This document shows positions 3,223 through 63,058 of a stretch of 64,000 nucleotides of DNA, one piece after another (positions within the stretch are counted from its first letter, which is position 1; each line of letters starts with the position of its first letter). The stretch comes from Eledone cirrhosa (lineage: Eukaryota). The notes under the pieces were generated by a model. That model saw only the letters and a program-made list of their open reading frames with translations, was not told the origin of the DNA and ran no database searches. The DNA lies in contig OZ024746.1 in the NCBI GenBank assembly GCA_964016885.1, positions 4,402,001 to 4,466,000 of the forward strand, written 5' to 3'. A program made the translations under genes and the position numbers.

Positions 3223-3544
3223 TAATGAGAAATTAATGAAGAAATAGAACGAAAGAGTAGACGGGCAGTGGTGGAAACAAAATCAAAATTTGTCATGTTG
3301 TCATCACTAATAGGAAGAAATTCATATACATAACTAAGTAAAAAAGAATGAAATATTCTATAATGATTTCAAACATAGGCACAAGGTCAACCATTTTGGA
3401 GTATCGTATATTTGATTATATCAGTCATAATATTTATTTAGTATATATTTTATCGACATATTGGATGACGGAACATAAAATTCAATTGAACACAAAGCGT
3501 AAAGGGGCATAAACACTGTCAAGTATTTTGACGGTCGCTCTAAT

Positions 3545-3725
3545 GTTTCTACTTTTAGCACAAGGCTAGCAATTATCCCAGTACATTACTGGTACTTTAT
3601 TTTATCGACCCCGTAAGGATGAAAGGCAAAGTTAACCTCGGCGGGATTTGAACTCAGATCGTAAAGGGATGTAACTATGCTAGAAAGCGTGGCGTCCAAC
3701 CCTCTACCGATACTGCCAGTTCACA
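3545..3725 (-). mobile_element. tRNA-derived SINE, family 1
   Basis: A box TGGCAGTATCGG, B box GAGTTCAAATCC, core GCCTTTCATCCTTACGGGGTCGATAAAATAAAGTACCAG. Confidence 0.9.
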
Positions 3726-3804: not shown

Positions 3805-5304
3805 TAGATACACGAATATATATATATATACACTCTAATATATACACTAATATATTCACACGAATATATACACATGAATATAGATATACACACGAATATA
3901 TACACACTAATATATATACACTAATATATACACACGAATATAGATACACACACGAATATATACACAGTAATATATACACCAGCCGAAATACACAGTAATA
4001 TATACACCAGCCGAAATACACAGTAATATATACACCAGCCGAAATATACAGTAATATATACACCAGCCGAAATACACACGAAGTGTGTATCTGCATGGTT
4101 TAACTCAATCCCATTACTACACTAGGGCTTGGTGAACACAACCACAAGGATATGGTCCGAACGGGGAAGAGCTCAACTCCCACTGTCATCGCCTTCATCT
4201 CTCTGACCCTCCCCATCTCTCCGTATGGTGAGCAAATGGGGTCCCACGTGCTGGCTTCTCCATCGCCGCGGCGGACAGAATAGAGAAGGCGTTTCCCCGG
4301 AGGATGGTAAGAGAGATGCGCTGGAAGAGCTATTCCATCTCGCGAGGCTCACACCTGCGGCTGGTCAGCTCAGCGCCCATGGTGGTGAGTAGGGAGGTAG
4401 CCCTAGGGGTACATGAATATATACACAAGTTGAAATACACAGTAATATATACACCAGCCGAAATATACACTAATATATACCCCAGTCGAAATATACACTA
4501 ATATATACACCAGCCGAAATACACAGTAATATATACACCAGCCGAAATATACACTAATATATACCCCAGACGAAATATACACTAATATATACCCCAGTCG
4601 AAATATACACTAATATATACACCAGCCGAAATATACACTAATATATACACCAGCCGAAATATACACTAATATATACACCAGCCGAAATACACAGTAATAT
4701 ATACACCAGCCGAAATATACACTAATATATACCCCAGACGAAATATACACTAATATATGCCCCAGTCGAAATATACACTAATATATACCCCAGTCGAAAT
4801 ATACACTAATATATACACCAGTCGAAATATACACTAATATATACACCAGTCGAAATATACACTAATATATACACCAGTCGAAATATACACTAATATATAC
4901 ACCAGCCGAAATATACACTAATATATACACCAGCCGAAATATACACTAATATATACACCAGCCGAAATATACACTAATATATACACCAGCCGAAATATAC
5001 ACTAATATATACACCAGCCGAAATATACACTAATATATACACCAGCCGAAATATACACTAATATATACACCAGCCGAAATATACACTAATATATACCCCA
5101 GTCGAAATATACACTAATATATACACCAGCCGAAATATACACTAATATATACACCAGCCGAAATATACACTAATATATACACCAGCCGAAATATACACTA
5201 ATATATACACCAGCCGAAATATACACTAATATATACACCAGCCGAAATATACACTAATATATACACCAGCTGAAATATACACTAATATATACACCAGCCG
5301 AAAT
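3805..5304. repeat. ~28 bp minisatellite (ATATATACACCAGCCGAAATATACACTA), interrupted at 4081-4411
   Basis: Tandem units on both sides of a GC-rich insert. Confidence 0.95.
4081..4411 (-). mobile_element. 3' fragment of CRE-clade non-LTR retrotransposon
   Basis: Minus strand reads PRATSLLTTMGAELTSRRCEPREME*LFQRISLTILRGNAFSILSA, matching the LFQRISxxxxRGNA C-terminus of CRE ORFs. Confidence 0.7.
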
Positions 5305-5443
5305 CTCCTGGGTGAATCTGTCCCATGATGAGTTTCATATTTTCATATCGCATGCCCCCCCCCCCCCCTAAACACCTTTGTTAGGGTTACCGCTTTATTA
5401 TTCAAACATGCATTATGTTGTATTGAGATATATACGTGTGTGT

Positions 5444-5507
<64 letters not shown>

Positions 5508-5826
5508 TTTAAAGACGTAGTGGGTCTAGAACTATCCAACATAACCTTTTAGACAATAGTTTAAGGAGGAATTGGCTGCCATTTCTAGCAAGCAGAACAC
5601 CAAGTAAAGCCCCCCCCCCCCCCTAGTGTTGTTATTGTTAGTGGTGATTGTTGTGGTGCTGATGTTTTTTGCTCTGGTCATTAATTCTTCTCTTAATAAT
5701 GTTATTTTCGTTAAAGTAAAGATTATATGTATGTACACACACATACACACACACACACACACATACATACATATATATGTATATGTGTGTGTATGCATGT
5801 ATGTATGTGCGTGTATGCATATATAT

Positions 5827-5900
<74 letters not shown>

Positions 5901-6851
5901 TATCTCTTTCTCTCTCTTACTGCTCCCTCGCTCTCTCTGTTTCTCCTACTTTCTTTCGCCCCCTCTGTCATGTCAGTTAACTCTTCCTCACACTTCCACT
6001 CACTCACTCACTGTTTCTCCTCTTCTCACTTCATCCCGTTCGCGACGAAATCATTTTCTCTCTTTCTCACATTTGAATTCGCTCCTGAAAGGTCTTTTTT
6101 CTAAGCGCTCATATATTCACCTAGCTTATGCTAACAGAATAACTATGAAGCTTGTTCCCTTCCTTCTACGGTTAGCTATCCTCTTTGTTGTTATCTTGTT
6201 TCACTCGCTTTACGCGTTTTAATTGTCCTAATAACTTAATTTAGTTATTATTGCACCGACGTGAGGTATATGATTTTTAATGCAATGAAATATCTATGAT
6301 CGTCGGCAAATCACTGATGAGGGACTTATTTTATTACATGTTATCCATGTGCAACCAGCAGTATTCTTCTCCCCATTTTTTCATATATATATATACTTAT
6401 TAAAAAAACAAAAAAAAATACAGGAGGCAATTTTTACACAGTTATATTAGGTTCACGCTTTCCAAACACACGCACACACACGCACGCACACAAACACACA
6501 CAAACACACACATATATATGAGCGTGTGTGTGTGTATGACGACACTATTAGATAACAATCCTATTATTGTTCATCTATTTGCAAATGTGATGCAATCTGC
6601 CTCTGTGTGTAGGCAGCCATGTTTCTAGCGTAAATCACATACAATTATGATATAAAACTATTTCATTTGTTAGAAGAAGACAATAAAACATATGAGGGAT
6701 GGTCAGTAATTGAGTTTCAAAATATATAAAGAAACACATAAACATATCAATAAATAGATAAATGTATTGTTTTTTAATATGAGAAAAAGAAGGAAATTTG
6801 TAATTTAAGGTTTATGTAAAAAGCAAGTGGTTATAATGCGTATAGAATAAT

Positions 6852-7031
6852 TGTTTCTACTTTTGGCACAAGGCCAGTAATTAACCAGTACATTACTGGT
6901 ACTTTATTTTATCGACCCCCGTAAGGATGGAAGGCAAAGTTAATCTCGGCGGGATTTGAACTCAGAATGGCAAGGGCCGTAACTCTATACGTGAAAGCAT
7001 GGCGTCTACCGACATTGCTAATCCACCGCCC
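6852..7031 (-). mobile_element. SINE family 1, near full length
   Basis: Same head and core as 62388-62541. Confidence 0.9.
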
Positions 7032-7157
7032 TGTGTATAGAATAATGTCGTGTCTTTATTAGTGAGAAGGACCGAAACATGAGGAACAATACAAGAGACA
7101 AGGCCTGTGGGGGTTTACAGAATAGTGAAAACCTGTCAACTAATCTAATAGATAACA

Positions 7158-7287
7158 ATAAACAATAAATTAATAACAATAGAAATAAATTTGTCAATAG
7201 GAGAAGCATCACCCCACAGCCCGAATCTGTGGGTGATGCTTCTCCTATTGACAAATTTATTTCTATTGTTATTAATTTATTGTTTAT
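7158..7287. repeat. near-perfect palindrome (~62 bp arms)
   Basis: ATAAACAATAAATT...CATCACCCCACAG / CTGTGGGTGATG...AATTTATTGTTTAT. Confidence 0.9.
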
Positions 7288-9129
7288 AGTAGTGTAAAGT
7301 CAGAAGATACTCTTGTTTTCTTACAGCAGCAGTGTATGAGTGCGTGTTCAGTGTTTTCTTTTCGACAGAAGAACACCCCCCCTCTCCGCTCACCTGCAAA
7401 TTTTAAAATACCAGATTCATAATAAAAATAGTGGATTTAGAGACTGCAGGCGATCTGAGAACCTTGACATTTTAACTCCAATATTCTGCCACTGAGCAAC
7501 ATATTGTTGATCAACAAGCTTTCCCTTTAGCATCAGCATCACATAATCGGTTTTTTAAGTGATACGAGACCAAGGGATATATGTTTTCATATTATCCTTA
7601 TCACATACTTCTATACGCAAAGGTGACTATAGATTTATAAATATATATATACACACACGTACACCTATCTATATTTAAACACACAAATATATCCCGATAT
7701 GTACTAAGGTTCGTTCAAATGTCGCTCTTCCTATATCACTTAGTATGATATAAGCACTTAATCGAAATCAATATATATTTATAGATTAGTAGTAACTCAT
7801 CAAAGTATTGATCGAATACAAATACGACCAGTGGGATACAAAAATACATCAACCAAATTTAAAACCTTATTAGTGAACATCTTCGATCCACAATCAATAG
7901 AAAGGTTCAGAAGAATTTGAGAAAATCGATAGCAACAAAAGCCTTACGCGGGAAAAGTGTCAAGACGGACTTTAGGAAGAAAATGATGTATTGGAAATTC
8001 ATCATATTTAATTCCATCTGGCTTATTTTCTTATTTTAAAGCCGTCGCTGCTTTTTCGAACGGCTTAGTAGAGAGCGAAATATAAGCTGTAAAATACGTA
8101 TATCTAAAAACATTGCTTACAAGTGATCTAGAAGCTAACCAAGGCTCTCCATCATTCCACTTCTTTGTACTGATGGTCAATGCCATAAAAGCTTAACGAA
8201 CGATGCTCACATGCATTCAACATCAGGCATTTCTTTGAATGATATTAAAAAAATGATATCACAACAAAAACAAACAGGAAGCTATTAACTTGATATCATC
8301 TAAACAACTCACCACCAACTCATAATAAGAAAAGTGGAACAACAAACAAAAAATTATCTTCTTCACCACAAACACTACAAACCAAAAGATCACTTCATTT
8401 ATGTTATTTGAAGAGATTTTTAAAGATTATTGCTAAATACTTCTCACCGTAGCTGACCTTTGCTTGTTTACTCCCTTAAAATATTCTGCTATCTTTAAGG
8501 GTTCAATAACCTTTCCAATACCAATTTAGCTTTCTTTCGTCCCTTTTCTTTTATATTCCTTCTCCTATTGATATCTTTTTCTGTCCTTAATTTTCTTTTT
8601 CCTTCCATTATCCTGCTTCTTTCTTGTTATTCAACATTCGCGTTTTTTCCCTACCTCTGTGTATTTATATATTTTACCATATATATATTTTCTTCCTTTT
8701 CCAACAATAACCTACAAGTAAACGGACCACACACAAACTAATCGTATTTTAATACATGCAACTCTAGATATGAGTGACGTAGGACACAAAGAAAACACTT
8801 AACAAGCAAATTCTGTCAGTTGGTTTCGATTCCAGGCTGGGTTATGTTAATCTATTTCATATAAATCGTTATCTTTGAAAAATGCATATATGTCATCTTG
8901 TCATACTCATTCAAAAGTATATAAATATGATCCCTTGCATTTATGTATATATGCATATCTAAATACAGAAACACATACATATATATCCATGTATGGTGCC
9001 GTAACTAGTGAAGGAGTCTTAGGTGTGTGTGTGGGGGGGGGGGGTTATTTGACATACAGCCTTTCTAAGGTATTTGTAAATCTGGCGGAACATATCCCTC
9101 TCGAGATCTGACGACACCAGATTTCTTGT

Positions 9130-9847: not shown

Positions 9848-10007
9848 ATATATGTGTGTATATATGTGTATATATATACAGTTTAGAATCCATATTCAAT
9901 AAACAAACCAGGATTTTTCATTCTGAGGATTGAAAGCAAAACCTTTTGCTTTTAAGAAACCACTGGTAAATGGAATAATTGCCTTATGTTGTTTATTACA
10001 TAATAAT

Positions 10008-10827: not shown

Positions 10828-10893
10828 TATTTTATCTGATGAAAGCGCACCATAATTTGCCTTGGTTGCCCTTGAAATATATATAATAAAATA
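10828..10893 (+). ncRNA. type I HHR (module C, 10665-10922)
   Basis: Stem I TATTTTAT/ATAAAATA, CTGATGA, stem II, GAA, palindromic stem III ATATATAT, H17=A. Confidence 0.8.
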
Positions 10894-11350: not shown

Positions 11351-11867
11351 GTGTATTTGTGGATTTAGTCACAATTGACTGTGCGAGTAATCAAGCCGAG
11401 TCAGCAATTCCTTTAGAAACCAACACACCATAATATACAATTTAAGAGGGAACCTCTATGTGGTTGCTTGACCTGCTACAAATATCAGCCAAATCTTCCT
11501 CAAAGGTCACCCTAACGTTCCACAATAAATGGCGTGTATATTGTATAGATATATATACAAGTACATAATAGCTTCATGGGCACGCTTGAAATCTCTTAGT
11601 AGCACTACATGTTTAAAGTAGCTTGGTTTAACACCAACACTAATATAACTGATATATTCTACATAACAGAGTATAAAACACACCTTATTACAGTTTATGT
11701 CAAACATAGCTGTTTTCATTTAATTGTTTCACCATCAAAATACATATAAAATTTACTCCTAATGTTTGTTGAAATAAACGACTGATAATTTAGTAGAATG
11801 AACACAAGGGAGTTGAAAATCATAATAAAAAATGAATAAAACATACATTGATTTTCAACTTTACGAT

Positions 11868-12980
11868 TCTACTGCTGCCTACAACAGAGAACAATTCCTA
11901 CTTCCTGAATTCTACTTACAGTTTCTACCGCTGCCTACAACAGAGAACAGTTCCTACTTCGTGAATTCTACTTACAGTTTCTACCGCTGCCTACAACAGA
12001 GAACAGTTCCTACTTCGTGAATTCTACTTACAGTTTCTACCGCTTCCTACAACAGATAACAGTTCCTACTTCGTGAATTCTACTTACAGTTTCTACCGCT
12101 TCCTACAACAGATAACAGTTCCTACTTCGTGAATTCTACTTACAGTTTCTACCGCTTCCTACAACAGATAACAGTTCCTACTTCGTGAATTCTACTTACA
12201 GTTTCTACCGCTTCCTACAACAGATAACAGTTCCTACTTCGTGAATTCTACTTACAGTTTCTACCGCTGCCTACAACAGAGAACAGTTCCTACTTCGTGA
12301 ATTCTACTTACAGTTTCTACCGCTTCCTACAACAGATAACAGTTCCTACTTCGTGAATTCTACTTACAGTTTCTACCGCTTCCTACAACAGATAACAGTT
12401 CCTACTTCGTGAATTCTACTTACAGTTTCTACCGCTGCCTACAACAGAGAACAGTTCCTACTTCGTGAATTCTACTTACAGTTTCTACCGCTTCCTACAA
12501 CAGATAACAGTTCCTACTTCGTGAATTCTACTTACAGTTTCTACCGCTTCCTACAACAGATAACAGTTCCTACTTCGTGAATTCTACTTACAGTTTCTAC
12601 CGCTTCCTACAACAGATAACAGTTCCTACTTCGTGAATTCTACTTACAGTTTCTACCGCTTCCTACAACAGATAACAGTTCCTACTTCGTGAATTCTACT
12701 TACAGTTTCTACCGCTGCCTACAACAGAGAACAGTTCCTACTTCGTGAATTCTACTTACAGTTTCTACCGCTTCCTACAACAGATAACAGTTCCTACTTC
12801 GTGAATTCTACTTACAGTTTCTACCGCTTCCTACAACAGATAACAGTTCCTACTTCGTGAATTCTACTTACAGTTTCTACCGCTTCCTACAACAGATAAC
12901 AGTTCCTACTTCGTGAATTCTACTTACAGTTTCTACCGCTGCCTACAACAGATAACAGTTCCTACTTCCTGAATTCTATT
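11868..12980. repeat. 56-bp minisatellite, ~20 copies
   Basis: GAATTC recurs every 56 bp (11963, 12019...); two linked variants GCTG..GAGA and GCTT..GATA. Confidence 0.95.
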
Positions 12981-14142
12981 TAAAGTTAATGTGTCTGGAG
13001 TTTTTCATAGCTAAGTAATTTGGAAATAGAAAATAAGCAATACCAATTACATAACGATTTAGTCACAGTTATCTTCTTGACGAAGTCACTCACAATCTAA
13101 CTAAATATATTATCCTAAACCAAACGATGCGTGTTAGAAACTGACGAATCCCATGACATATTCTGGATATCATGTTCATTCTGACTCAAGAATAAGTATT
13201 GAGAATAAGAACCAACAGCCACAGCTTTCTTTTTAGTATTTTATCCAGAACAGCGATGGCAGTGTCTATAGGTCACTGAGTAAATAATAATCACTTCAGT
13301 TGTTACGTCGTTTCAAGCTGAAGCTGAGTAAAAGAAGAGTGCAAGTGGGTTGTTTTATTCGGAATGAAATGCTTCAGTTAATGTATCAAGTGAAGTTTAA
13401 CAAGAGACACTATGTTTTGAATAAGATAAACTATGAGAGAAATGTAATTGTGGATAGCTGCCAATAGAAATATCTTGACATATTAATAGTAAGGGTAAGA
13501 GCTCATTCTTGCAACGAGAGAAAACACAAGAAATCTCTGCACATTAGATTAATGATTGAAGATTTTGACGTCAATGTTTGAAGGTGTTATCTAGAAGTTC
13601 TGGTGACAGAAACAGAGCATGATATGTAATGAGAAATTACTGGGATGCCATTACTATGTACTCAGTGTTCCGTGTTACAACATCATCAATGTCATTAAAC
13701 AACATTGATTAGGTTCTTGTTGACTTCCAGTTATCAGTTCCATTCCAACCTTTCCGTTATTGGTACTACAGTTAATATAAGAGGATTTCTTATTAGAGAA
13801 ATAATATTGATTAGCTCAGTCATATTGCTATCACGTTGTTATCCATATATAGTAGTGGTGGCATTCCGTCAGTTACGACGACGAATGTTCCAGTTGATAC
13901 AAGCAATAGAACAGCCAACTCATAAAATTAACGTGCAAGTGGCTGAGCATTCCACAAACACGCGTACCCTTCAAGTACTTCTCAGGGATATCTGTATATA
14001 TCCTAAAGAAAATTCATCCAAGACAGTTGTGTTTGTTCTCTACATATTCATTATAACATTCAGTGAGTATATTTCATAACCAATTCACGAGAACAATTTT
14101 ATAGAGAATATGTTAGTTTAACTCGAGGAAAAGTAGTCATGT

Positions 14143-22299: not shown

Positions 22300-22829
22300 A
22301 TAGAACCTTACTTCCCCTTTCCAATATATAAGAACCACAAAGTTACTAAGACAAAACATATATATTTGCTAACATAGGTATGCATCTGTATACATATGTT
22401 GGTAGATATACTAATTCTTTATAATTATCTCCAAATTATTTGTTGAGCAAAACTTGCCGAAATTACTACTATGATTAATAGTAGTGGCTAGGCCCTGTCT
22501 TAATAGCACCCCCACTCCTCACTGATTAACCTCAGTGTCACGTGATTGATTCTTTTGAATTTGCCACTTGACCAAGTAGGCAGTGAATTTTTCAATGTCT
22601 TAGAATCTAGTCCCCGCTCGCTTTTTTCCATTCACTGAATTATTTTTATATAAGTTCCCAGTGTCCTCGCATTGCCTGGAAGCTTAGCTGAGAATAGACT
22701 CCCTGATGACGTAAGGCTTCTCTATGGATACGCTCCGTAACCATATTTATCCCCTTACAGAAACTAATTAGTTGGAGTGAAATTTTAGTAAGTAAGTTAA
22801 TTTTCATAACTTTCTTATTTACGCCTTTC

Positions 22830-22832
<3 letters not shown>
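22300..22832 (+). mobile_element. diverged monomer of the 558-bp HHR element
   Basis: Colinear with 59380-59915 (e.g. GTGTCACGTGATTGATTCTTT, CAGTGTCCnCGCATTGCCTG); same 3' end before (TA)n. Confidence 0.85.
22698..22778 (+). ncRNA. variant type I HHR (C10.1-A11.1)
   Basis: ACTCC-CTGATGA-C-GTAAGG...CCTTAC-A-GAA-ACTAATTAGT-T-GGAGT. Confidence 0.8.
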
Positions 22833-23394: not shown

Positions 23395-24177
<783 letters not shown>

Positions 24178-24222
24178 TAAACAAATAATGAACAAACAAT
24201 TCCTTATATTAAACAAAAAAAG

Positions 24223-24377
24223 TTCACTATTTAACGATCGTTTCTAGGGTATATATGTGCTATAATTGGTATGCATATTTAACAGATCTATGTACAAAAT
24301 TATACAAAATTATACAAATTATCAAGATTAAATATACATACCTAACTCATATATACGCCGTCTTCAGAAATAATGAA
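24223..24377 (-). ncRNA. variant type I HHR in PLE 3' pLTR, very long stem II
   Basis: Stem I TTCATTATTT/AAATAGTGAA; CTGAAGA; C-GG-C-GTATATATG...CATATATAC-C-CT-A; GAA-ACGATCGT-T. Confidence 0.8.
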
Positions 24378-25146
24378 GTATATTTATTGATAATAACAAC
24401 AATTCAAAATATCAGTTCAAAATTGACCAATGAAAACACAAAGGGTTAAAAAGCAGTTTGGTGTGTGTATATACATGTAAAACCCTACACACATTTTACA
24501 ATAATGTGTGTATAATATGTATGTGCATACTAAAAAGATGGATGCAAATAAAAAATTTCAAGGTTAATATCTCTGTAAGCTTAATGCGCTGATAAGATAC
24601 GCAATGATACTTATGTAGTCAAGCATATAAATATATTTTTTTCATACTCACACATATCAGTATAATCACACATACATGTGCGTATATATATAAATATACA
24701 CATAACCACGAACACACAAACACACACACACCCCCCACTCACATTTATATATGTGGATATAAAATCATAAGCAAATAGAAATTAAGTCACTCACATAAAC
24801 ACACTGGTACACACATTTCAAGATCAAGATACAGAAATTAGGTGGGAGGGGGGGGGAGGGGTCAGTATTAGGTTGTCAGACCAGACAGCCTAATATAAAT
24901 GTATCTATAAATTATGAAAAATAAAAAAATAAAAACAATAAAATATATTACATATAATATAATGTACATACGCATACAGATATACATACACATACATACA
25001 TGTACGCGCACATAGAGATATCTACACATACATACATACACACATACCTATACTGTCATACACACACATACATTTACACGAACATACACATACACATATA
25101 AAAAGATAAAATTACGGACACACACACGCGCAACACATACACACAT

Positions 25147-25193
<47 letters not shown>

Positions 25194-25304
25194 TATACAC
25201 ACACACACATAGACTCATATATATATACATACACATACATATACTTATACATAAACATATATATCCCACACTCATACCACCATGAAAACACATACAAACA
25301 TCCA

Positions 25305-25353
<49 letters not shown>

Positions 25354-25445
25354 ATACACACACGTACACATATATGCATATATACATACATATATACACA
25401 CATACACATACACATATATACACACACACATAAAATACAGACATG

Positions 25446-25476
<31 letters not shown>

Positions 25477-25572
25477 TTCATTACCCTTATATATACACAT
25501 AGTATATATACATACACAACCTCACTTATACACATATACACATAAGTTATATTACAATAATAATAAAGAATA

Positions 25573-25603
<31 letters not shown>

Positions 25604-25742
25604 TATACACACATATACACATATACATACATACACATACATATACATACATACATACACATACATACATACACCTAAATATAAACATATATAAATACAC
25701 ACATACGAATAAAGACATATATTCACACATAGACACCTATAT

Positions 25743-25784
<42 letters not shown>

Positions 25785-27620
25785 ATATACACACACATAC
25801 ACATACATACACATATATATATATATATACACACATATATACACACGCACACACATACAGACACACATACACACTCACATATATATATATATATATATAT
25901 ATATGTGTATGTGAGTGTGTGCAAATACATACATATATATACACACACGCATACAAACACACACAAACACATACATATGCATACATGCACACACACACAC
26001 ATATATCACATAGATACGAAGATAAACATATAAATAGAGAGACATACAAATATATACAGAACCCATATACACATACATGCAAACACGCATATACATATAT
26101 ACACATATATACACACATATATATATTCCTATATACAAGCATACACATACACACACATATATACATATACCTACACATATATATACCACACATTCACATA
26201 CACATACATATATAATACATATATATACATACATATACATACATATGTATGTACAATCATATATACACACTCAATCTTACATTCATATTTACATGCTCAT
26301 ATATGTATTTTTATATCTAGAAATAAATACCAAAAAAACTATATAGACACCCATCTACCCATATATTCATACATATACACTTACAAAAACAGATGATAAT
26401 AGTATGGGGGAAAGGGGGGGGGGTTTGGAGAAGGGGATCAAAGTAAATATATGTTTCAAGAAACCTATAATATTTTCCATATCTTAATTCAATGTATGTT
26501 CTTACATATTTTCAATGCTAGGAAATACGAAATCTATGCATCACAAAATAAAAAAGTATACCATTAATCATATGTCAACTAAACCAAAGATAGTCAACAT
26601 ATTGATTTCCAAGGTGTAAATTAGTTAGGTTTATAATATTTGAAGCAGAATTATGAAGTCAAACAGTAGTAGATTATTAATTACATTATAACTAAATTAA
26701 AGTTAATAATAGGGAAAAGAAACCCAAATAAAATTAAAATAAAATAAAGTATTACATCGGTAGTAGCATATAAATTATATGTTAACTAAGTTAAAAATTA
26801 TATATTTATTTCAATAGTATATGTTAATTAGTATATGTTAATTAGGTATACAATACATAAAGCAGATATTGTATTTCATCAATAGCATAATATAATTATA
26901 TGCAAATAAAAATCAAAATTAATACGCATACACATACATATACATACACATACACATACATATACATATACATACACATATATATATATATATATATACA
27001 TATATATACACACATACATACATATATAGTCACATAAATATACATACAGATACACATACAATACACACATATACATATACATATAGATATACATATCTTT
27101 TTCAAAAAATTTGCACAGAATATATTAACTAGGTATATATCCAAAAACACCTCCCATTCTATGATTACATGAAATTCTGCAATTCGTCTGTACAAGGATA
27201 CTAATTTTAAGCAAATTAAAATTAAAATTAAAGTTTTAGGTTGATTAAAGCTAAAACCAAATAATAAATATATTTCCAAAATGTATATTAATTAGGTCAA
27301 TAATACTAAAAATTCTTTCTCCGTCATAGGATACATGATATTATTTTGTTATATTTTATCTGTAAAAGAATTATAATAAAAAAAAAAAAAAAAAAAATTT
27401 TATAATAAAAGGTTAAACTAAATTAAAAAATTATAATAAAAGGTTAAAATAAGTTAAAATTAATCTATAAATTAAATTACTGAATATATATTAGTAATAT
27501 TTAAAGGTTTTTCAAAATTAATGATTACATAATATTTTCTCATCTGTAATAAAATATTAATTAAATTAAATTTATAGGTTAACTAACATTTAAATTAAAT
27601 TAAATTCTAGAATAATGTTA

Positions 27621-58348: not shown

Positions 58349-58409
58349 TATTTTATCTGACGAAATCGTACTTAAATATTAGTACCCTTGAAATACGTAT
58401 AATAAAATA
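58349..58409 (+). ncRNA. type I HHR (module C relative, 58225-58450)
   Basis: TATTTTAT-CTGACGA-AATCGTACT...AGTACCCTT-GAA-ATACGTAT-A-ATAAAATA. Confidence 0.8.
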
Positions 58410-58450: not shown

Positions 58451-58515
<65 letters not shown>

Positions 58516-58705
58516 GATAATTTAATATATCAACCAACATAAGCGCACAGATGCACGCCCATGCTAGCAAATACACAGGTTATGTCATAGTACCTAGGTG
58601 GTTCAATGCAGGAGAATGCAGAACAATAATATAAAAGACGTAAAATAAGAAAATATTTTTTTTTTAAATTTTAAAAAAATTTTTTACTTACTTACTTAAA
58701 TTTTC

Positions 58706-58787
58706 ACTCCAACTAATTAGTTTCTGCAATGGGATAAAGACAGTTACGTAATCCAACTGTCGAGAATTCATTGCGTCATCAGGGAGT
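58706..58787 (-). ncRNA. variant type I HHR (left arm)
   Basis: Reverse complement of 59757-59838. Confidence 0.8.
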
Positions 58788-59756
58788 CTATTCTCAGTTA
58801 AGTCTCCAGGCAATGCGCGGACACTGGCGGCTCATATAAAAATAATAATAATTCGGTAGATCGAACAGCTGGCGAGGACTGGATTCTATGTACCGAAATT
58901 CTCACTGCTACAGGTCAAATGGCCGATTCTAAAGAATCAATCACGTGACACAGAGGCTAGTTAGAAGGAATGGGATGGTAAGATGACTGACGCCTACTAA
59001 CACCCCAAAAAATTTTTTTAGAAGTGGTTTTGGCAAGTTTGCTCGACAAATCAGTGATTTAGAGATAAATATAGATAATTTAATATATCAACCAACATAA
59101 GCGCACAGATGCACGCCCATGCTAGCAAATACACAGGTTATGTCATAGTACCTAGGTGGTTCAATGCAGGAGAATGCAGAACAATAATATAAAAGACGTA
59201 AAATAAGAAAATATTTTTTTTTTAAATTCTTTAAAAATTTTTTACTTACTTACTTAAATTTAAGTAAGTAAGTAAAAAATTTAAGAAAATTTAAGTAAGT
59301 AAAAAATTTTTTAAGAATTTTTTTAAAAAATATTTTCTTATTTTACGTCTTTTATATTATTGTTCTGCATTCTCCTGCATTGAACCACCTAGGTACTATG
59401 ACATAACCTGTGTATTTGCTAGCATGGGCGTGCATCTGTGCGCTTATGTTGGTTGATATATTAAATTATCTATATTTATCTCCAAATCACTGATTTGTCG
59501 AGCAAACTTGCCAAAACCACTTCTAAAAAAATTTTCTGGGGTGTTAGTAGGCGTCAGTCATCTTACCATCCCATTCCTTCTAACTAGCCTCTGTGTCACG
59601 TGATTGATTCTTTAGAATCGGCCATTTGACCTGAAGCAGTGAGAATTTCGGTACATAGAATCCAGTCCTCGCCAGCTGTTCGATCTACCGAATTATTATT
59701 ATTTTTATATGAGCCGCCAGTGTCCGCGCATTGCCTGAAGACTTAACTGAGAATAG

Positions 59757-59838
59757 ACTCCCTGATGACGCAATGAATTCTCGACAGTTGGATTACGTAA
59801 CTGTCTTTATCCCATTGCAGAAACTAATTAGTTGGAGT
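59757..59838 (+). ncRNA. variant type I HHR (right arm)
   Basis: ACTCC-CTGATGA-C-GCAATG-[GACAGTT/AACTGTC hairpin]-CATTGC-A-GAA-ACTAATTAGT-T-GGAGT. Confidence 0.8.
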
Positions 59839-60176
59839 GAAAATTTAAGTAAGTAAGTAAAAAATTTTTTTTTAATTTTTTTTTTAAATATTTTCTTATT
59901 TTACGTCTTTTATATATATATATATATCGAAATGTGAGACTATTGCGTTAACAAGCGGAAAGAAATTTCTCAGTTCAATGAGTTTTTACTCGTAAATGTT
60001 CAAAAAGCTTCTTGAATTGTTACTCTCAGCTTCAGTTTCAGATATCAGCGTTCCAGTGATACCAGTCATTACTTCATTGGAAGCATGTAACCAACGATGA
60101 CAATGTTCACCAAATGTGATATATATACATATTGTGAGAGAGAGAGAGAAATAGATGACATCTTGTATATACATTG

Positions 60177-62100: not shown

Positions 62101-62387
62101 GGAGCTGAATAGGGAAATCAGCAACCTATAGAGAATCTACGATGATTTATATACAAGTGATAATCGTACAAGTATAGGTAAACAACCATTCAAACAGAAA
62201 CAGTTAATTAACACATATTTACACAGAACACAATACATATAACACCCGCGTATCACCAGGAATTATTAAAAGGGAGACAATTTAACCAAATACAAATTTC
62301 AAGTATATAAGCAGTATCAAATGTCGGACATTAGCAAGCGTAAGAAAAGCAGGGAAGAAGTATATGGTTATATTATTACTTGCATAA

Positions 62388-62541
62388 AGGGCGGTGGATT
62401 GGCAGTATCGGTAGAGGGACGGACGCCATGCATTGAAGCATAGAGTTACCTCCCTTTATGATCTGAGTTCAAATCCCGCCGAGGTTAACTTTGCCTTTCA
62501 TCCTTACGGGGTCGATAAAATAAAGTACCAGTAATGCACTG
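62388..62541 (+). mobile_element. SINE family 1
   Basis: GGGCGGTGGATTGGCAGTATCGG...GAGTTCAAATCC...GTACCAG. Confidence 0.92.
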
Positions 62542-62820
62542 AGATAAAGGTAGAAGCAATTATTATTCTTGTATTTGTTAGAATGTTTATAAGATGAGGT
62601 TAAATAATATACAAAGAGAGGAAAGTAAAAGGCAAAAATTAAAAGTAGTTCCGTGGCCACAATAGTAATTAGTTTTCACATTAATGGATATACAATATGT
62701 AAGATCTATATTATTATAAGTCGAGTTCCTCGTCCCAATACTAATGAAGAAATGGAGGACATAAGTTGGTGATATCAGGCGTACAGAGTTCAAAATCGGA
62801 ACTATGAATGACTGATCATA

Positions 62821-63011
62821 ATTGTTTCTACTTTTAGCACAAGACCAGCAATTATCCCAGTGTATTACTGGTATTTTATTTTACCGACCCTGTAAGGATG
62901 AAAGGCAAAGTTAACCTCGGCGGGATTTGAACTCAAGCCATAAAGGGACGTAACTCTTTGCTTCAAAGCATGGTGTCCGACCCTCTACCGATACTGCCAA
63001 TCTACCGCCCT
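62821..63011 (-). mobile_element. SINE family 1, full length
   Basis: Reverse complement of 62388-62541 plus tail. Confidence 0.92.
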
Positions 63012-63058
63012 TGAATGAATGGCTGATAATAATGCCAACTACTATTATGATCTTCATG

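Follow-up and report, generated by a model that had tools for sequence, protein, structure and literature searches.

The question raised by this locus is whether a hammerhead motif with a C·A mismatch at the base of an unusually long stem II represents a conserved variant of a Penelope-like element (PLE) lineage or a product of decay, and whether it links an autonomous element, encoding reverse transcriptase (RT) and endonuclease, to a non-coding one; conservation and link had both been claimed in an earlier note on this DNA. The window analysed is a stretch of 64,000 nucleotides, and the PLE on its minus strand that holds the hammerhead at 24377-24223 is referred to as the 6.17-kb PLE; the genome searched comprises 3.0 Gb.

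The host element and the anatomy of its hammerhead

The following features make up the element and its hammerhead:

24172..24222, minus strand: remainder of the 3' pseudo-LTR, ending at the short 3' end 61 nt past the cut, with the (TA)n target next to it
24223..24377, minus strand: type I hammerhead motif in the 3' pseudo-LTR
24245, minus strand: A11.1 in a UAG context, opposite C10.1
24245..24360, minus strand: long stem II region, 116 nt
24378..27620, minus strand: 3.2-kb 3' UTR, rich in TA/TG microsatellite-like sequence, other copies being 93-99% alike
27621..30062, minus strand: intact ORF of 813 aa, RT and C-terminal GIY-YIG-type endonuclease
30063..30246, minus strand: 5' UTR together with the last part of the pseudo-LTR tail; 30246 is where the forward copy starts
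30243..30580, plus strand: inverted, 5'-truncated pseudo-LTR with the 3' half of the hammerhead and the tail as far as the long 3' end; (TA)n follows

The earlier description of the PLE as intact was borne out, the ORF being open from 30062 to 27621 and at least 100 copies being 98-100% identical over the RT half; based on these 100 scored ORF matches the family is regarded as very young. Within the ORF the marks RWR (for RWK), DKT, a CxCX5C linker, CxxC and CxH were recognised, and a Pfam search with the ORF returned no match. The inverted partial pseudo-LTR at 30243-30580 is the typical PLE 5' structure, both ends of the element in the window lie in (TA)n, and its tandem period is ~6,168 bp. 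By its single ORF with C-terminal GIY-YIG domain and the above motif set, by its pseudo-LTRs and (TA)n target and by its tandem and inverted arrangement, the element is assigned to the Hydra-type PLEs, from whose typical, not diagnostic, traits it departs in unit length (6.17 kb versus <3 kb) and in the non-canonical hammerhead. No relative of it was found among viral contigs.

All parts of the hammerhead described earlier, i.e., stem I, CUGAAGA, the C...A, the 9- and 15-bp helices, GAAA, the palindrome and GUU, were located at 24377-24223. Stem I is formed by 24377-24368 with 24232-24223 (10 bp, one G·U) and is followed by the core CUGAAGA (24367-24361, minus), after which C10.1 at 24360 opposes A11.1 at 24245; the stem II so delimited (24360-24245), earlier given as ~115 nt, measures 116 nt. 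Omitted from the earlier description was its very base, where the C·A is followed by G·U, G-C and C·C, on top of which a helix of 9-12 bp, a helix of 15 bp (one U·G) and an apical AU-rich hairpin are stacked. GAAA occupies 24244-24241 and the palindromic stem III 24241-24234 (minus); the triplet is GUU, with the cut predicted at 24233/24232. The C·C at 24357/24248 (minus), position four of stem II, was seen to be kept in every aligned subfamily of the 6.17-kb PLE.

The fold of the region amounts to -42.9 kcal/mol (z = -5.6) and was matched in stability by 0 of 200 shuffles, and a relaxed hammerhead descriptor gave 11 matches in the window and none in any of the 30 second-order Markov simulations run; hence the motif is not considered a chance product. 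Among the best 150 of 345 matches to Rfam covariance models (E <= 1) hammerhead families were absent. The CUGANGA and GAAA core, A15.1-U16.1 and an NUH triplet that characterise type I hammerheads are all present, and the canonical G10.1-C11.1 is replaced by C·A, which excludes the term "canonical" and not "hammerhead-like", since active natural U·U hammerheads exist. Stem III is predicted at +2.4 kcal/mol as a hairpin versus -10.0 kcal/mol as a palindrome duplex of two molecules, and the active monomer fold is predicted to lie 3.6 kcal/mol above the free fold, or 7.9 kcal/mol with wider context.

The window holds seven further type I hammerheads of other families, at 10828-10893 (plus), 47908-47978 (plus), 47787-47717 (minus), 58349-58409 (plus), 34696-34632 (minus), 31553-31483 (minus) and 9916-9975 (plus), most of which combine an AUA triplet with arms of 26-36 nt and with A-U or G·U as the 10.1·11.1 pair, some of them forming fold-back pairs. 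Minisatellite arrays were seen at 40230-43976, 11854-12987, 46788-47379 and 1-1161 (42, 56, 66 and ~32-66 bp), the 42-bp array yielding spurious frames of >1,100 codons. A dispersed repeat of ~170 bp with many copies (3541-3724, 6843-7032, 32224-32461, 36425-36620, 37051-37227, 44071-44218, 62387-63012) presumably resembles octopus SINEs.

Conservation within the family and comparison with other families

Genome-wide counts at position 11.1, obtained with exact patterns of the hammerhead 3' side only, gave A in 12,319 of 12,367 matches (>99%), G in 17 (0.14%) and C or T in 31. In copies fetched by similarity and de-duplicated by their flanks, C10.1 together with A11.1 was found in 26/26 members of subfamilies a and b and in 41/41 of subfamily c. 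The arms of the four subfamilies measure 116, 115, 104 and 101 nt, whereby the 101-nt subfamily sits behind a broken ORF whose endonuclease fragments are ~57-85% identical. In an alignment of 32 sequences, 93.9% of the stem cells are paired, versus 24-60% with the partners slid, statistics that are inflated by the relatedness of the copies; by this pairing and the z value of the fold, stems I and II form. Most of the stem changes are A-U to G·U, and two-sided covariation is confined to 3 pairs, a number equalled in 248 of 500 shuffles. In eight near-full copies transversions were counted at 2/148 hammerhead sites versus 112/1,231 UTR sites (p = 0.0004), and on the evidence of these copies the hammerhead stems are under purifying selection. 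The near-invariance of A11.1, the long arms of all four subfamilies and the transversion deficit support the view, put forward in the earlier note, that C·A and a long paired stem II are a conserved trait of this lineage and not decay. Copies with a canonical pair or an unpaired stem II had been named there as the observation that would speak against it, and the fetched copies uniformly carry C·A, with stem II paired as described.

Two further ideas were considered for the arm and rejected. A heritable editing footprint rested on an A-to-G excess in the hammerhead (10/54 vs 1/96) which had been computed with a differing control copy set; the same eight copies give 8/73 for the hammerhead versus 72/556 for the UTR (p = 0.71), and G·U tolerance explains the A-to-G changes in the hammerhead DNA. 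PLEs retain introns, and GU...AG signals exist in stem II, where an intron was considered; 4 junction-pattern matches versus 9,846 unspliced ones were obtained, the 4 being 3 inversion junctions and 1 chance match, which in itself does not exclude splicing, and no splice joints were seen in run contigs aligned with window positions 24100-24500.

Which of these traits are particular to the 6.17-kb PLE was judged from six further Hydra-type families of the same genome (F2-F7), whose terminal hammerheads were read by eye in 1-3 copies each; protein identity to the 6.17-kb PLE is 42-48% where measured (44-45% for F6 and F7).

F2 hammerhead: U·U at 10.1·11.1, U4A, 13-nt arm
F3 hammerhead: U·U, U4C, 81-nt arm
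F5 hammerhead: A·G, U4C, 20-nt arm
F6 hammerhead: A·A, 21-23-nt arm
F4 and F7 hammerheads: G·U or G-C, 20-nt arm

In this partial survey C·A occurs in 1/7 autonomous families read, namely in the 6.17-kb PLE. Outside this genome, 78 metagenome loci (best 80 of 429) were sorted into 59 families, 44 of them with a hammerhead and 15 with none. Position 10.1·11.1 is G-C in 18 of the 44, U·U in 17, G·U in 4, A-U in 3, A·C in 1 and C·A in 1, C-G being found in 0/44; the arms measure 10-25 nt, none exceeding 25 nt. In L383, the one outside family with C·A, both repeats carry the motif and the arm measures 21 nt; in a midpoint-rooted tree (FastTree or IQ-TREE fallback) from which 3 rows with broken frames had been left out, L383 and the 6.17-kb PLE family do not fall together. 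File S2 of Craig et al. (PMC8557442) lists U·U at the stem II base in 14/26 Hydra rows and GUU in 10/26, and gives Chara PLE-X1_cBra with a C...A base, filed under canonical motifs. Based on the family tallies and these published rows, a loose 10.1·11.1 is taken to be a trait of the clade, with C·A as one recurring state that has arisen independently elsewhere, i.e., in L383 and, as filed, in the Chara element. In the families compared the long arm is the rarer trait.

The relaxed search in related PLEs that had been proposed earlier thus has a divided outcome: the loose base pair recurs, and the combination of C·A with a long arm does not in the 44 outside families. GUU and the palindrome, which had been counted among the recurring marks, fail as signatures, the triplet being GUA in the 101- and 104-nt subfamilies and GUU in the above minority of published Hydra rows, and a palindromic stem III being described as the PLE norm (PMC4209133, PMC6765202). 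A sisterhood of the two long-armed families, F3 and the 6.17-kb PLE (F1), was discarded, since its support of 0.89 in one tree was lost in a second. Published searches that were built on short stems or that discarded mispairs beside the core may easily have missed families like the 6.17-kb PLE with its ~12,000 copies.

Other core variants were encountered alongside. U4A and U4C occur in multi-copy families with intact ORFs (L151, L152 and L154 for F2; L156 and L158 for F3; L160 and L162 for F5; L241), and CUGANGA descriptors miss both. One hammerhead family (L085, L240, L247) has A10.1·C11.1, where editing would give I-C mimicking the canonical G-C, and a metagenome Hydra-like element (L321) displays core covariation at U3-A8.

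Predicted catalysis, read-through and probable editing of the mismatched adenosine

The reading of these data that is considered reasonably probable is that the pseudo-LTR hammerhead of this active PLE is a variant peculiar to its family, in which C·A is fixed and stem II measures 101-116 nt, and which is predicted to be slow and likely to cut only as a dimer. Two hammerheads in a tandem transcript would pair via their palindromes and cut occasionally, whereby unit-length RNA would be released or circularised. The weak 10.1·11.1 pair (a C·A wobble, comparable to U·U and G·U in the relatives) would hold the rate low, and a low rate would let reverse transcription read through; the long arm would be selected as a helix, and host A-to-I editing on it would most likely be incidental. 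Consistent with a slow ribozyme, the core, A15.1-U16.1 and the NUH triplet are intact, and PLE hammerheads have been described as weak and dimeric (PMC4209133). G10.1-C11.1 is called highly conserved (PMC4209133, PMC3088659); natural U10.1·U11.1 hammerheads cut, the best-tolerated mispair at this position being U·U and not C·A (PMC3088659), and the U·U-based axolotl hammerhead HHR_Amex2 was 22% cleaved in 1 h as a monomer and better as a dimer (PMC7229834). By analogy, we infer from the established isostericity of the two pairs that C·A may act as a wobble like U·G; the accessible parts of the literature, including PMC544870, PMC11300833 and PMC9901934, yielded no cleavage figure for this RNA or for any other hammerhead with C10.1·A11.1, and Lunse 2017 and Ruffner 1990 may bear on it.

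The genomic copies point to an RNA template that is uncut or re-joined, because the 3' ends of new copies of the 6.17-kb PLE lie 61 or 198 nt past the predicted cut and 28 of 37 ORF-anchored copies run past the upstream cut site and on through its intact hammerhead, 1/37 stopping there. For an anole PLE, RNA that has not been processed is described as the main template, and its hammerhead as assisted by protein (PMC11167929). No accumulation of copy 5' ends is seen at the cut site, neither in the 6.17-kb PLE (that 1/37) nor in F2, F3 and F5 (none at 0), so that cleavage has left no genomic trace. Matches lacking U17 amount to 605/8,943, and of 30 that were read, 27 are hammerhead-derived with GUA or GUC (4 truncated or mutated) and 3 are template-switch junctions.

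The missing pile-up is also what would be seen if the fold no longer cut and were kept in order to bind or position the protein of the element close to the two starts of reverse transcription. Core departures are common in the Hydra-type families of this genome (U4C in F3 and F5, U4A in F2, many mispairs), which suits such a role, as does the report that hammerhead mutants of the anole PLE left in vitro insertion unaffected (PMC11167929). However, the other catalytic positions, the NUH triplet (GUU, GUA, GUC) and the palindrome are kept in the subfamilies and in the 44 outside families, which is hard to explain without catalysis, and related mispaired hammerheads cleave (PMC7229834, PMC3088659); a fold without catalysis is hence held to be improbable, and the slow ribozyme is retained as the preferred reading. 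The natural variants found in the active elements of this one genome (C·A, U·U, A·G, A·A, U4C, U4A; arms of 13-116 nt) form a ready panel for asking how slow PLE hammerheads may be and what purpose they serve.

A second role for the mismatch was suggested by contigs of three runs that were aligned with window positions 24100-24500, contig depth serving as a rough measure. In run X5, which stems from another sample with the same organism code, is not on record as RNA and comes with no DNA of the same individual, A-to-G was found at A11.1 in 328/1,113 depth (~29%, 21 contigs) and at A15.1 in 365/1,255 (17 contigs), and furthermore at 24328 on the element strand and at three weak sites on the opposite strand. 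The changes private to X5 number 6, each being A-to-G on one or the other strand, and none occurs in run X1, a zero that misses even the 17 genomic G11.1 copies; at 15.1 the genome has G in 19 matches versus 12,319 with A11.1. A-to-I editing at these X5 sites is quite likely real. Coleoid editing is reported to favour A-C mismatches and repeats, A11.1 (UAG opposite C) being a site of the favoured type (PMC8891338, PMC9068888).

Whether this editing has a function is a separate matter. It was considered that the long arm might recruit ADAR and that conversion of A11.1 to inosine, giving a C-I pair, might switch cleavage on or off. Engineered hammerheads do read editing through C-I pairing (PMC3923133), and the preference of coleoid editing just cited, the level of A11.1 change in X5 set against 0 in X1 and 17/12,367 genome matches, the uniform A-to-G type of the six changes and the retention of A11.1 in the non-coding element (6,183/6,211 genome matches) would all fit. 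The host would fit as well, its molluscan hemocyanin being closest to cephalopod chains: the best single-unit PDB matches of the hemocyanin units score 659 and 650 bits versus 460 for the next, the two top chains being those of squid and octopus, so that the host is probably a coleoid cephalopod. The hemocyanin gene clusters were located at G000:C1:173745629-173909524 and G000:C26:21933048-22016816.

Against a switch it has to be weighed that the core base A15.1 is changed as often as A11.1, which makes bystander editing the likelier explanation, that both strands are changed, as expected of bystander editing at inverted repeats, and that the observation stems from one run and from contigs only. 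C·A also occurs with a 21-nt arm in L383 and in the Chara element, which belongs to the plant lineage, and F3 has an arm of 81 nt but U·U. ADAR is not known from the plant lineage. C-G at 10.1·11.1 was met in none of the 44 outside families, and Tuschl and Eckstein are said to have found in 1993 that inverting G10.1-C11.1 lowers hammerhead activity. Genomic G11.1 is not in excess (17 G vs 31 C or T); therefore edited RNA is not being copied. On editing-dependent hammerheads the accessible literature yielded engineered cases only and no natural one, and on octopus hammerheads nothing relevant was found beyond Craig et al. An editing-controlled ribozyme is thus regarded as quite improbable; if editing of A11.1 did shift the rate, it would be a natural case of such control and a direct host handle on a retroelement. 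On balance, the hammerhead of the 6.17-kb PLE probably represents a slow form of a ribozyme class already known, and its mismatched A may be edited by the host.

The non-coding element and comparison with known systems

The second part of the initial question concerns a non-coding element of 525/558 bp, which is present in the window in two subfamilies; for it and for the autonomous families the distances of the 3' ends past the cut were mapped.

22332..22832, plus strand: non-coding Hydra-type element, subfamily NA1, unit 523-525 bp
22698-22778, plus strand: NA1 hammerhead with C·A, 50-nt stem II and GUU
58453..59927: NA2, 558-bp non-coding element in inverted, partly tandem copies
58787-58706, minus strand, and 59757-59838, plus strand: NA2 hammerheads with C·A and GUU
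3' ends past the cut, 6.17-kb PLE: +61 and +198
3' ends past the cut, NA1: +52-56 and +168-172; NA2: +77 and +195
3' ends past the cut, F2: +25 and +114; F3: +58 and +229; F5: +42 and +208

For F6 one end was obtained and for F7 none. A TA...GCTC-like motif follows each 3' end in the mapped Hydra-type families, and a GTYGAG-type box follows the long end in NA1, NA2, F2, F3, F5, F6 and F7 and is absent in the 6.17-kb PLE; motif and box are a candidate for a clade-wide RT priming signal. The pseudo-LTR tails in which motif and box were read are L011, L152, L158, L167, L168, L074 and L286, most of them having the box at the long end. Two internal priming sites have been shown for the anole PLE (PMC11167929), matching the pattern of two 3' ends. 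Since it shares two 3' ends, the common end motif and the (TA)n target, the non-coding element is, judged by its structure, clearly Hydra-type, and it is probably PLE-derived. Its copies are tandem and inverted with (TA)n targets, young and abundant, three subfamilies covary at 7/21 predicted pairs, and as a non-coding tandem repeat with one type I hammerhead per unit it also answers to the definition of a retrozyme. A further retrozyme-like array was noticed in L154 (reverse of the stored strand, ~5300-8000), where a 311-bp unit with one hammerhead each is repeated at least 9 times in tandem.

The earlier note had stated that the stem sequences of the two elements are unrelated, that their hammerhead traits nevertheless recur and that the autonomous RT/endonuclease is thereby linked to the non-coding element. 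The first statement agrees with the absence of significant DNA similarity: a local alignment of the 6.17-kb PLE with the non-coding element gave z = 1.5, with 17/200 shuffles as good, and the best BLAST match had E = 0.006, the same as that to family F7b. As to the second, C·A and GUU do recur, and stem II is shorter, with 50-51 nt in the three window hammerheads of the non-coding element versus 101-116 nt. A TTGGTAGAT-like word that the 6.17-kb PLE and NA1 share close to their long ends was dismissed as proof of kinship, being not significant and absent in NA2.

The proposed link would mean that the non-coding element descends from, and is mobilised by, the 6.17-kb PLE and inherited its C·A hammerhead design. 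In its favour, C·A, a longer-than-usual stem II, a (TA)n target and two 3' ends spaced ~116-137 nt are common to both elements, each of which is young and abundant, and among the seven autonomous families read the 6.17-kb PLE alone has C·A. Yet they share no significant alignment, the best BLAST match equalling one to F7b, their palindromes differ and do not cross-pair via stem III, and the end box of the non-coding element is that of the other families; moreover, C·A arose independently elsewhere, and the survey of autonomous families is partial. Kinship is thus unproven, because GUU, palindrome and C·A all occur elsewhere, and descent from, with mobilisation by, the 6.17-kb PLE is considered unlikely.

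Compared with known systems, the element stands closest to the Hydra-clade PLEs of Craig et al. 2021 (PMC8557442, including Hydra-1_Obim), with which it shares the C-terminal endonuclease, the RWK-type and DKT motifs, the CxCX5C linker, CxxC, CxH, the (TA)n target and a pseudo-LTR hammerhead with palindromic stem III. It differs from them in its unit of 6.17 kb versus generally <3 kb, in a stem II of 101-116 nt versus short hairpins, and in its C·A, which the supplement lists for Chara PLE-X1_cBra and in no Hydra row. The metazoan PLE hammerheads of Cervera and de la Pena 2014 (PMC4209133) are, as here, of type I, located in pseudo-LTRs, provided with an unstable palindromic stem III and predicted to act as dimers, an extra base after A9 being a known trait (see also Lunse et al. 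2017 via PMC6765202); they keep G10.1-C11.1 and a helix II of 7-8 bp, whereas the 6.17-kb PLE has C·A and an arm of ~40 bp. Cleavage despite mispaired bases at the foot of helix II has a precedent in axolotl HHR_Amex2 (PMC7229834). In the engineered editing-dependent hammerheads of Fukuda et al. 2014 (PMC3923133) cleavage can be gated by C-I pairing close to the core, these being artificial, trans-acting and with the pair at another position, in contrast to the natural hammerhead of the 6.17-kb PLE; that the latter is a natural ribozyme gated by ADAR at its C·A, the non-coding element having converged on or inherited the switch, would be a decidedly long shot. The non-coding element itself resembles the non-LTR retrozymes (Cervera and de la Pena 2020, PMC7229834; Li et al. 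2026, 10.64898/2026.07.22.740005) in being non-coding, tandem and equipped with a type I hammerhead, and is set apart from them by units of 525-558 bp versus ~300-390 bp, by its PLE-type inverted insertions and by its two 3' ends.
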